A DNA stretch of 43,510 nucleotides from Escherichia phage vB_EcoP_ZX6, in the sequence record MZ424864.1; one strand, given 5' to 3'. Position numbers and translations under genes: made by a program. Below are positions 41,208 through 42,022 of this stretch, piece by piece (position 1 is the first letter of the stretch; each line of letters begins with the position of its first letter). The notes below the pieces were generated by a model. It saw only the letters and a list, made by a program, of their open reading frames with translations. It made no database searches and was not told the origin of the DNA.

Positions 41208-41239
41208 TTCACATAGCGCCCCGTAGGACGCTATAGGCT
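41208..41239 (-). promoter_or_regulatory. conserved intergenic hairpin element (copy A)
   Basis: Plus strand ttcacATAGCGCCCcgtaGGACGCTATaggct; about 30 nt match a second copy at 41991-42022 with 4 differences. Confidence 0.4.
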
Positions 41240-41372
41240 TGCTACTATACGTACTCACCCAATCCCTCGTACACCCATTTTTGAGCGATTGCCCGCATAG
41301 GGATATCGAAGGCGTCGGAATCGTTGGCCGCAGGGCACAAGGCCCACCACTTGATAACCGGTACTTTATAAA

Positions 41373-41948
41373 TTATGCCGCGGCCTTCAACGTCGCGTCC
41401 AGTACAGCGCGTACATCCACGCCCTGCGATACCAGCATAGACACAAGGTCAGCATCGCTTACACCAGTCTCTTTGGCCTTCTTGATAGCGTTTCTAACGC
41501 GCCCCAGCGCTTGCAGGCGCACTGAATCGGCATCCAGTGCGTCATTCTTCACCTGCTCCGCTTCGGCGGCGTACAGGGCCATACAGGAGCTATAAAAGCT
41601 GGCTACGATAACCTCGCGGCCCTGCTTGTCAGCTTGTTTGTAGTCCAGACGCATAGTGTCCAGTTCGATGCACAGCCTCTCGGCCGAGGCGTAGCACTTC
41701 TTCGCATTGAACTCGTACTTACCGGACTCTTTATTGAACTTGATAGGCAGCAGAGTGCGCAGCACCATATCGAAGTCGGCGGCATCACTGCGCTGCATAT
41801 CCGTAGCCCATGAGACGTTGCTGCTAATCAGGCCGTGAAACAGCGCGCTGATAGTGATATTACGCTTTGCTTCCACTACGTCGCCAAGCGCTTTGCGAAT
41901 GCTGCCCGCAGCGGTGAGCTTGAATACTTTACCAGTTGAATGAGTCAT
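41373..41948 (-). CDS. hypothetical early protein (191 aa)
   Basis: Well-formed ORF with mixed helical composition, preceded by a conserved hairpin element; no motif recognised. Confidence 0.55.
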   Translation of the reverse strand: MTHSTGKVFKLTAAGSIRKALGDVVEAKRNITISALFHGLISSNVSWATDMQRSDAADFDMVLRTLLPIKFNKESGKYEFNAKKCYASAERLCIELDTMRLDYKQADKQGREVIVASFYSSCMALYAAEAEQVKNDALDADSVRLQALGRVRNAIKKAKETGVSDADLVSMLVSQGVDVRAVLDATLKAAA

Positions 41949-41990
41949 AATGCACCTCGTTTATTGTTGGTTGTTTACTTATCGAATTAC

Positions 41991-42022
41991 TTCACATAGC
42001 ACCCCATAGGGTGCTATAGGCT
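41991..42022 (-). promoter_or_regulatory. conserved intergenic hairpin element (copy B)
   Basis: Plus strand ttcacATAGCACCCcataGGGTGCTATaggct; perfect 9-bp stem with 4-nt loop, same flanks as copy A. Confidence 0.4.

Follow-up and report, generated by a model that had tools for sequence, protein, structure and literature searches.

A covarying two-stem RNA hairpin between early cistrons of KP34-like phages is a candidate RNase III processing signal

Introduction

The RNase III sites of phage T7 (R0.3, R0.5, R1, R1.1, and R1.3) lie between the cistrons of the early transcript that the host RNA polymerase makes. At these sites, a lower stem that overlaps the upstream stop codon is separated by an internal loop from an upper stem of 9–10 base pairs (bp), which is closed by a tetraloop, and the whole spans about two helical turns. 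The positions at which RNase III cleaves them were reportedly mapped by Dunn and Studier in 1983. Here, we describe an element that is like these sites in position and build and that occurs twice in Escherichia phage vB_EcoP_ZX6 (sequence record MZ424864.1), whose 43,510 nucleotides (nt) we refer to as the window. Each copy forms a hairpin of roughly 50 nt, with two stems, in the sense RNA. By analogy with T7, we favor, at a probability of about 55%, the interpretation that the element is a hairpin through which host RNase III processes the early polycistronic mRNA and by which that mRNA is stabilized. Cleavage is proven for the T7 sites and, by the same analogy, predicted for the element.

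E. coli RNase III needs a substrate of about two helical turns in which 11 bp of helix separate the cleavage site from the loop, and internal loops confine its cutting to one strand, leaving a protective 3′ hairpin (PMC1540722). Pertzev and Nicholson (2006) also defined base pairs at particular positions: position 2 of the distal box stringently needs U·G, while in the proximal box position 2 must be A-U or U-A and position 4 must be neither G-C nor C-G (PMC1540722).

Other small phage hairpins share some of these properties. Like the element, the lambda nut/boxB and HK022 put hairpins are small RNA structures of which an early phage transcript carries about two, but the element contains no boxA or boxB-like sequence. 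In P22, an annotated nutL lies ~2 kb upstream of the element. To our knowledge, T7-like phages do not use RNA-mediated antitermination. Hairpins with UNCG tetraloops (CUUCGG) were reportedly found between cistrons of phage T4 by Tuerk et al. in 1988. These resemble the element as very stable C(UNCG)G structures between phage cistrons; however, they are simple stems, whereas the element adds a second stem and an invariant internal loop.

The conserved core of the element is already known as a DNA motif. Eriksson 2015 reports the consensus AGCCTATAGCGTCCTACGGGGCGCTATGTGAA, with two copies per genome in KP34, SU503, SU552A, NTUH-K2044-K1-1, and F19, and proposes that this sequence, the same as that of our element, is a "putative phage promoter" of the Kp34likevirus phages, with single-strand nick sites as the alternative (PMC4411677). 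The SU552A record annotates the same two 32-mers as "promoter, discovered using MEME". This function was later disproved: purified KP34 RNA polymerase, whose true promoters read T(A/G)ATGTTACAGGAGTA, made no transcript from a polymerase chain reaction (PCR) fragment that contained the motif (Lu 2019; PMC6834552). A full-text literature search for the 32-mer returned the 2015 paper alone, the available part of which mentions neither RNA structure, nor a covarying outer stem, nor copies outside the genus (PMC4411677). The motif is therefore known and its promoter function disproved, and we found no replacement function in print. In the literature we examined, we did not meet the motif as the core of a covarying two-stem sense-strand RNA, the sharing of the element with SP6-like and P22-like phages, or its alignment with RNase III recognition features.

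Results

A reading of the window from its sequence alone had noted two copies of a hairpin element of about 30 nt. We confirmed both 32-mers, at 41208–41239 (copy A) and 41991–42022 (copy B), together with the flanks quoted for them; a pattern search of the window gave two matches against 0.00 expected (100 shuffles). When the whole window was searched without filters using a covariance model (R1, described below), only two sites were reported, both on the minus strand: copy A at 41197–41249 (72.5 bits, E = 1.5e-18) and copy B at 41980–42032 (69.8 bits, E = 9.8e-18). No further copy was found in the window by either the pattern search or the model. As these intervals indicate, the 32-mer was correctly identified but is only the core of a larger element, to which the flanks add a stem of 6–8 bp in each copy.

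From base to tip, the sense RNA forms an outer stem of 6–8 bp, a 4x4 internal loop (AGCC/UGAA), an inner stem of 10 bp, and a tetraloop that is usually of the UNCG type. The outer stem starts at the stop codon of the upstream gene and is made of the non-conserved flanks, which differ between the two copies yet pair with themselves within each (UAGUAGCA/UGCAACUA in copy A and UAAUUAC/GUAAUU in copy B). The internal loop is irregular, with one C-G pair plus C·U and purine·A mismatches. Folding of the minus-strand RNA, a check that the sequence-only reading had proposed, yielded stable structures in which the flanks pair as the outer stem: for 48 nt, the free energies were −23.3 kcal/mol for copy A (z −4.2) and −20.0 kcal/mol for copy B (z −4.8). 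The inner hairpins have stabilities of −15 to −16 kcal/mol. Folding also revised the 9-bp stem that had been described. That stem is paired, but on the plus strand copy A forms only eight of the nine pairs, with a C·A at position 7; on the minus (sense) strand this position is a G·U wobble, and the stem extends to 10 bp in both copies. The base change noted at position 6 of the 9-bp stem, G:C in copy A and A:T in copy B, is real.

In copy A, the 5′ arm of the outer stem (UAGUAGCA, 41240–41247, minus strand, as are all parts of both copies) begins with the TAG stop codon of a 43-amino acid (aa) gene. Its pairing with the 3′ arm (UGCAACUA, 41200–41207) is broken once, after the third pair from the start, and resumes for four pairs. 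Between the arms lie the 5′ strand of the internal loop, AGCC (41236–41239), which is nearly invariant and whose third base pairs with the G of UGAA; the inner hairpin UAUAGCGUCC-UACG-GGGCGCUAUG (41212–41235), with 10 bp, U·G pairs at positions 1 and 8, and a UNCG-type loop; and the 3′ strand of the internal loop, UGAA (41208–41211), where the T7 analogy would place the RNase III cut. The 3′ arm ends 6 nt before the GAGG ribosome-binding site (RBS) of the next gene, which encodes 73 aa. In copy B, the 5′ arm UAAUUAC (42023–42029) begins with the TAA stop codon of a 71-aa gene, the 10-bp inner hairpin is UAUAGCACCC-UAUG-GGGUGCUAUG (41995–42018), with C-G at position 8, where U·G is usual, and the 3′ arm GUAAUU (41985–41990) is followed 36 nt on by the start of a 191-aa gene.

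To the 40 related loci gathered by a search with the 191-aa protein, we added 120 DNA stretches from a pattern scan of viral contigs. The resulting alignment (A2) is ungapped and contains 72 distinct 53-mers; it replaced a MAFFT alignment (A1) in which a gap had shifted the outer stem. We scored A2 with the structure ..((((((((..(.((((((((((....)))))))))).)..))))))))... and built covariance model R1 from it. Over the 72 sequences, 93.6% of the pair cells were paired, compared to 74.6% in shuffles (0 of 500 reached the observed value) and at most 43.6% when the partners were slid. Changes on both sides were seen in 12 of the 19 pairs. The outer stem, for which there were 33 distinct arm combinations, paired at 6.09 of 7 positions, against 3.46 ± 0.36 with shuffled partners (0 of 2000), and at least three different standard pair types occurred at every position. 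The inner stem was partly fixed by the search pattern, so that invariance in that part says little, while its upper four pairs and the whole outer stem were unconstrained. Comparison with relatives also showed that copy B is present in all 42 related loci (the 40 plus two GenBank records), of which four have no copy A within the fetched stretch. Within the genus Drulisvirus, the element forms a conservation peak, with a mean column identity of 0.94–0.97 compared to 0.6–0.88, with indels, in the flanks. Selection on a base-paired structure, which had been proposed from the two copies, is strongly supported by these data.

The structure is specific to one strand. The U·G pair at position 1 of the inner stem is near-invariant (71/72), as is that at position 8 (69/72, with C-G in the other three), and both would become A·C mismatches on the opposite strand. 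On average, 17.8 of the 19 pairs form in the sense strand but 15.7 in the antisense strand. The sense-strand loop is of the UNCG type in 41 of the 72 sequences and UAUG in another 18. Together, the strand-specific U·G pairs, the UNCG-type loops, and the covarying outer stem point to a selected structure that resides in the sense RNA and not in a double-stranded DNA site for a protein. The suggestion that the repeats are a regulator-bound DNA palindrome fits poorly with the U·G pairs and with an outer stem that covaries without being conserved in sequence.

The same features make a role at the DNA level, as a nick site, a recombination hotspot, or a palindrome sensed by host systems, very improbable: the orientation of the element always follows transcription, its conserved G·U pairs are strand specific, and its outer stem covaries without sequence conservation. 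In favor of such a role, the DdmABC (Lamassu) defense system can be set off, at the DNA level, by the palindromes of T7 RNase III sites (PMC11707656), and in one contig recombination between the copies seems to have removed genes 02 and 03; this deletion looks like a consequence of the repeats rather than their function. The contig (L080, IMGVR_UViG_3300045988_020859) carries a single hybrid element at 9132–9183, whose 5′ arm is that of copy B and whose 3′ arm is that of copy A, and the outer stem of the hybrid is broken. With genes 02 and 03 missing, it looks like the product of a deletion by recombination between the two repeats.

A third copy, with its own flanks (GGUUAAU/AUUAACC), is present in 3 of the 42 related loci, 56–60 nt after copy B (L004, 1531–1650; L026, 2342–2465; L030, 2346–2465). 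In L004, copy B and the third copy are separated by a 7-codon mini-open reading frame (MVGYGEG) with a strong RBS, and its stop codon sits in the outer stem of the third copy.

To place the element in the phage genome, we compared the window with its relatives. Positions 40500–43510 are 87–96% identical to KP34-like Klebsiella phages (Drulisvirus, Autographiviridae). In KpV74, F19, and SU552A, whose records have the usual orientation, the matching stretch falls in the first 3.4 kb and on the opposite strand. Thus, the window is a Drulisvirus genome stored as its reverse complement; its genes here are encoded on the minus strand, with the early region at the high-coordinate end. A host sigma-70-like promoter, TTGACA-17-TAGATT, lies at 42597–42625 on the minus strand, the predicted start of the early transcript; the same sequence is given as a host promoter in PMC4411677. 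Since this promoter lies upstream of both hairpins, they would be part of the early transcript made by the host polymerase. As had been noted from the sequence, both copies are intergenic and upstream of minus-strand early genes: copy B lies between the 71-aa gene (42027–42242) and the 191-aa gene (41373–41948), and copy A between the 43-aa gene (41245–41376) and the 73-aa gene (40962–41183), all on the minus strand. The neighboring proteins are all of unknown function according to PHROGs and Pfam. The intercistronic position in the early region, with the lower stem at the upstream stop codon, recurs in the phages J8-65, Gaspode, and K1-5 and in the PL operon of P22.

This position also bears on the published annotation. 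A promoter for the RNA polymerase of the phage was proposed in PMC4411677 and is annotated in SU552A, and the element contains TATAG, as T7-group promoters do. We consider it extremely unlikely. The motif-bearing fragment was inactive with purified KP34 polymerase (PMC6834552), expression of the early region, where the element lies, precedes production of the phage polymerase, and the element is present in P22-like phages, which lack such a polymerase. As a KP34-type promoter the element is likewise rejected, as it does not match T(A/G)ATGTTACAGGAGTA and was negative in the in vitro transcription. The phage-specific promoter role that the sequence-only reading had listed is therefore refuted by the KP34 experiment, and the true promoter motif is found elsewhere: in the window, T(A/G)ATGTTACAGGAGTA occurs only at 9923–9938 and 21951–21966, on the minus strand, with one mismatch each. 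These two sites are copies of TAATGTTACCGGAGTA, each a single mismatch away from the strong KP34 polymerase promoter defined by experiment, and are likely to be the real phage promoters of the ZX6 genome.

A role as a terminator, also listed earlier, is unsupported. The hairpins are followed by the tails UGAAUGCAAC and UGAAGUAAUU, which contain no U run, and a terminator scan reported neither site; we rejected the element as an intrinsic terminator. The Rfam covariance models, small ribozymes included, gave no match at the element when run over 40000–43510 with E values up to 10. Two other hairpins in the window are of a different kind. At 17510–17528 on the minus strand, GCCUUCGGGUGCCGGGGGC precedes a run of nine U; PMC4411677 reports this conserved Rho-independent terminator, located between structural genes, for KP34-like phages. 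Within the coding sequence of the 191-aa early gene, at 41518–41541 on the minus strand, lies a perfect hairpin with a 10-bp stem and a tetraloop (CGCACUGGAU-GCCG-AUUCAGUGCG, −14.1 kcal/mol).

We then compared the element with T7 sites pair by pair. Read from base to loop, its inner stem is U·G, A-U, U-A, A-U, G-C, C-G, A-U or G-C, U·G, C-G, C-G. The upper stem of T7 R1 is C-G, A-U, G-C, G-C, U·G, C-G, A-U, U·G, C-G, and that of R0.3 is A-U, A-U, G-C, G-C, G-C, U·G, A-U, U·G, C-G. Positions 2, 8, and 9 are A-U, U·G, and C-G in all three, and the element and R1, but not R0.3, have C-G at position 6. At position 7, the A-U that is the usual form of copy B is also that of R1 and R0.3, whereas copy A has G-C. 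The loop UGCG, found in the element of some relatives, is the loop of R1. The sequences differ at the base of the upper stem, which is UAUA/UAUG in the element and AAGG/CCUU in T7, and in the internal loop, which is AGCC/UGAA in the element and ACUC/UAUGAU in T7.

The build of the element also agrees with what is known of RNase III substrates (PMC1540722). Its two stacked stems span about two turns and contain an internal loop of the kind that limits cutting to one strand. The 10-bp inner stem and the C·U position give 11 stacked positions between the predicted cut and the tetraloop, as required for a helix of at least 11 bp. If, by analogy, the U·G pair present in 69 of 72 sequences is set at position 2 of the distal box, the A-U six pairs below would fall at position 2 of the proximal box and the C·U mismatch at its position 4, so that neither proximal-box position would hold G-C or C-G. 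The element is located as such a site would be, between cistrons of the host-polymerase early transcript with its lower stem at the upstream stop codon.

Further evidence comes from relatives in which the element is accompanied by T7-like hairpins. Two-stem hairpins with the dimensions of the element are present in nearly all of the early intergenic gaps of J8-65, Gaspode, and K1-5. The first early gap of J8-65 is taken up by the element, at least three later gaps contain hairpins nearly identical to T7 R1 or R1.1, and the other later gaps that we checked hold two-stem hairpins of the same build; a similar mix is seen in Gaspode and K1-5. The upper stems of one such hairpin (CAGGCCAUC-UGCG-GGUGGCCUG) and of T7 R1 (CAGGUCAUC-UGCG-GGUGGCCUG) are almost identical. 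Comparison of the first gap with the later gaps of J8-65 thus shows that the element and T7-like hairpins occupy equivalent places. Unannotated T7-like hairpins lie in early gaps at 2533–4004 in J8-65 (L044), at 2641–3034 in Gaspode (L043), and at 2024–2099 and 3238–3300 in K1-5 (L167); the upper stems of several of them nearly match those of T7 R1 or R1.1.

To determine how widely the element occurs, we searched for its core, CCUAUAGC-[stem and tetraloop]-GCUAUGUGA. We found it in Escherichia phage J8-65 (Bonnellvirus), in Pectobacterium phages (Phimunavirus), in Cronobacter, Pantoea, Dickeya, and Enterobacter phages, in SP6-like phages, including K1-5, K1E, and relatives, and in P22-like and lambdoid phages, including P22 itself, where it lies in the PL operon between orf87 and gene 17. 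All of the copies outside Drulisvirus fold into the same two-stem shape, each with an outer stem of its own, and covariance model R1 gave a single match in each of J8-65, K1-5, Gaspode, and the P22 PL region. Even phages with no neighboring gene in common have an identical 17-nt core. The protein encoded downstream of the element has a homolog in Gaspode (50% identity) but not in J8-65 or K1-5. As the element adjoins unrelated genes in different phages, we rejected the idea that it is an operator for one particular gene.

The core does not belong to host chromosomes. When 185,579 genomes of bacteria and archaea were scanned for it, there were only 80 matches, scattered over unrelated taxa and, by a rough estimate, about as many as chance would produce, indicating that this is a phage element. 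The P22-type copy is present in 92 of 5,426 E. coli genomes; these copies look like they lie in prophages, one listed match has P22-type neighbors, and K-12 is not among the E. coli matches listed. The P22 copy itself (L166, NC_002371, 28809–28880, minus strand) has an 11-bp stem ending in U·G and a U-A beside the UACG loop, and a terminator-like hairpin with a U-run lies ~100 nt beyond it. In SP6-like phages (K1-5, L167, about 2330–2352; also L066 and L114), the element is directly followed by UAUUUACUUACACUAUAAGGUGA, which by its sequence resembles an SP6-type phage promoter, side by side with the hairpin. A hairpin beside a promoter is also the arrangement at several T7 sites.

The constancy of the core raises the possibility that the element is a site for a sequence-specific RNA-binding factor, of the host or of the phage, that reads the irregular helix CCUAUAGC/GCUAUGUGA; such a site could serve to control translation, to bring about antitermination, or to protect the transcript. 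Identity of 17 nt in phages without common neighbors and a conservation peak of 0.94–0.97 are what such a factor would lead one to expect, and RNase III alone requires far less sequence (PMC1540722). We nevertheless regard it as improbable. We saw no protein that accompanies the element from one phage group to the next, the neighbors being unrelated, and all of the hosts are Enterobacterales, which would equally fit a host factor such as RNase III. Since the distance to the next start codon varies between copies, the element is not a fixed translational operator. With no greater likelihood, the invariant irregular helix could be a portable RNA module that moves among unrelated phages of Enterobacterales, and may span several Autographiviridae groups as well as P22-like and lambdoid phages; it would be read by a sequence-specific factor, with RNase III secondary at most. 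If true, the element would define a new class of RNA signal in phages and would not be a variant of the T7 sites.

Discussion

Of the four roles listed by the sequence-only reading, RNase III-type processing is best supported, given the architecture and position of the element, its pair-by-pair resemblance to T7 R0.3 and R1, and the hairpins of the same build in the early gaps of relatives, although the signature sequence of T7 is absent. By analogy, each copy would be a host RNase III processing signal of the kind that separates the early cistrons of T7. The outer stem, the structured 4x4 loop, and the 10-bp inner stem would stack, spanning about two helical turns, and RNase III would bind this stacked helix and make a single cut in UGAA, the 3′ strand of the internal loop. 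The upstream message would then end shortly past its stop codon in a very stable UNCG-closed hairpin, predicted to block 3′-5′ exonucleases, while the downstream message would receive a new 5′ end near its RBS.

Several observations weigh against RNase III processing. In place of the T7 signature AAGGUC…GGCCUUUAUGAU, the element reads UAUAGC…GCUAUGUGAA, and the sequence AAGGUC…GGCCUU(UAUGAU), used as a test, is not found in it. When covariance model R1 was run against bases 1–7000 of T7, the best score was 8.1 bits (E = 2.5); as there is no significant match in the T7 early region, we do not count the element as a member of the T7 sequence family. In the proximal box, positions 1 and 3 (U-A and U·G) differ from the optimum for minimal substrates, as does position 1 of the distal box (C-G); T7 R0.3 and R1 likewise have C-G at this last position. 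In copy B of the window, C-G replaces the U·G of position 8; in the P22 class, the U·G sits two pairs higher, at position 10, so that the distance between it and the invariant box varies. The outer stem of the natural variant L080 is broken. Our literature search found no mapped cleavage, 5′ end, or 3′ end for any copy and no Drulisvirus transcriptome; it also found no report of RNase III sites in phiKMV-like or SP6-like phages. Lastly, although RNase III demands little in the way of sequence, unrelated phages have an invariant 17-nt core that includes a C·U mismatch; this is a hint that a second partner recognizes the sequence or that the module has been transferred repeatedly. It is chiefly this invariance, which RNase III alone does not require, that holds our confidence at the level given above.

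Some of these observations would also fit a simpler hairpin, which marks the cistron boundary and stabilizes the mRNA without RNase III: the inner hairpin would stall 3′-5′ exonucleases after cuts made at other places by, for example, RNase E, a role that has been proposed for the CUUCGG hairpins of phage T4. The inner hairpin is stable (−15 to −16 kcal/mol), has a UNCG-type loop in 41 of 72 sequences, and is part of a structure that begins right after the upstream stop codon, and L080 exists as a natural variant with a broken outer stem. We hold this explanation to be unlikely, if somewhat less so than an RNA-binding factor or a portable module. A plain barrier needs neither a covarying outer stem nor an invariant internal loop, and it has no need for U·G and A-U at the positions where the T7 RNase III sites have them.

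Our preferred interpretation, processing by RNase III, has practical consequences. The "promoter" annotation that still stands in the SU552A record can be replaced by a function at the RNA level that is testable. KP34-like Klebsiella phages are widely used in therapy research, and their polymerase is used for RNA synthesis. For phage engineering, it is relevant that the repeats appear to cause the natural loss of two early genes and that Lamassu/DdmABC defense systems can sense palindromes that form hairpins of this kind (PMC11707656). More generally, our findings suggest that KP34-like phages organize their early expression by mRNA processing like that of T7, and they show that one small RNA module is common to podoviruses and P22-like temperate phages of enterobacteria.

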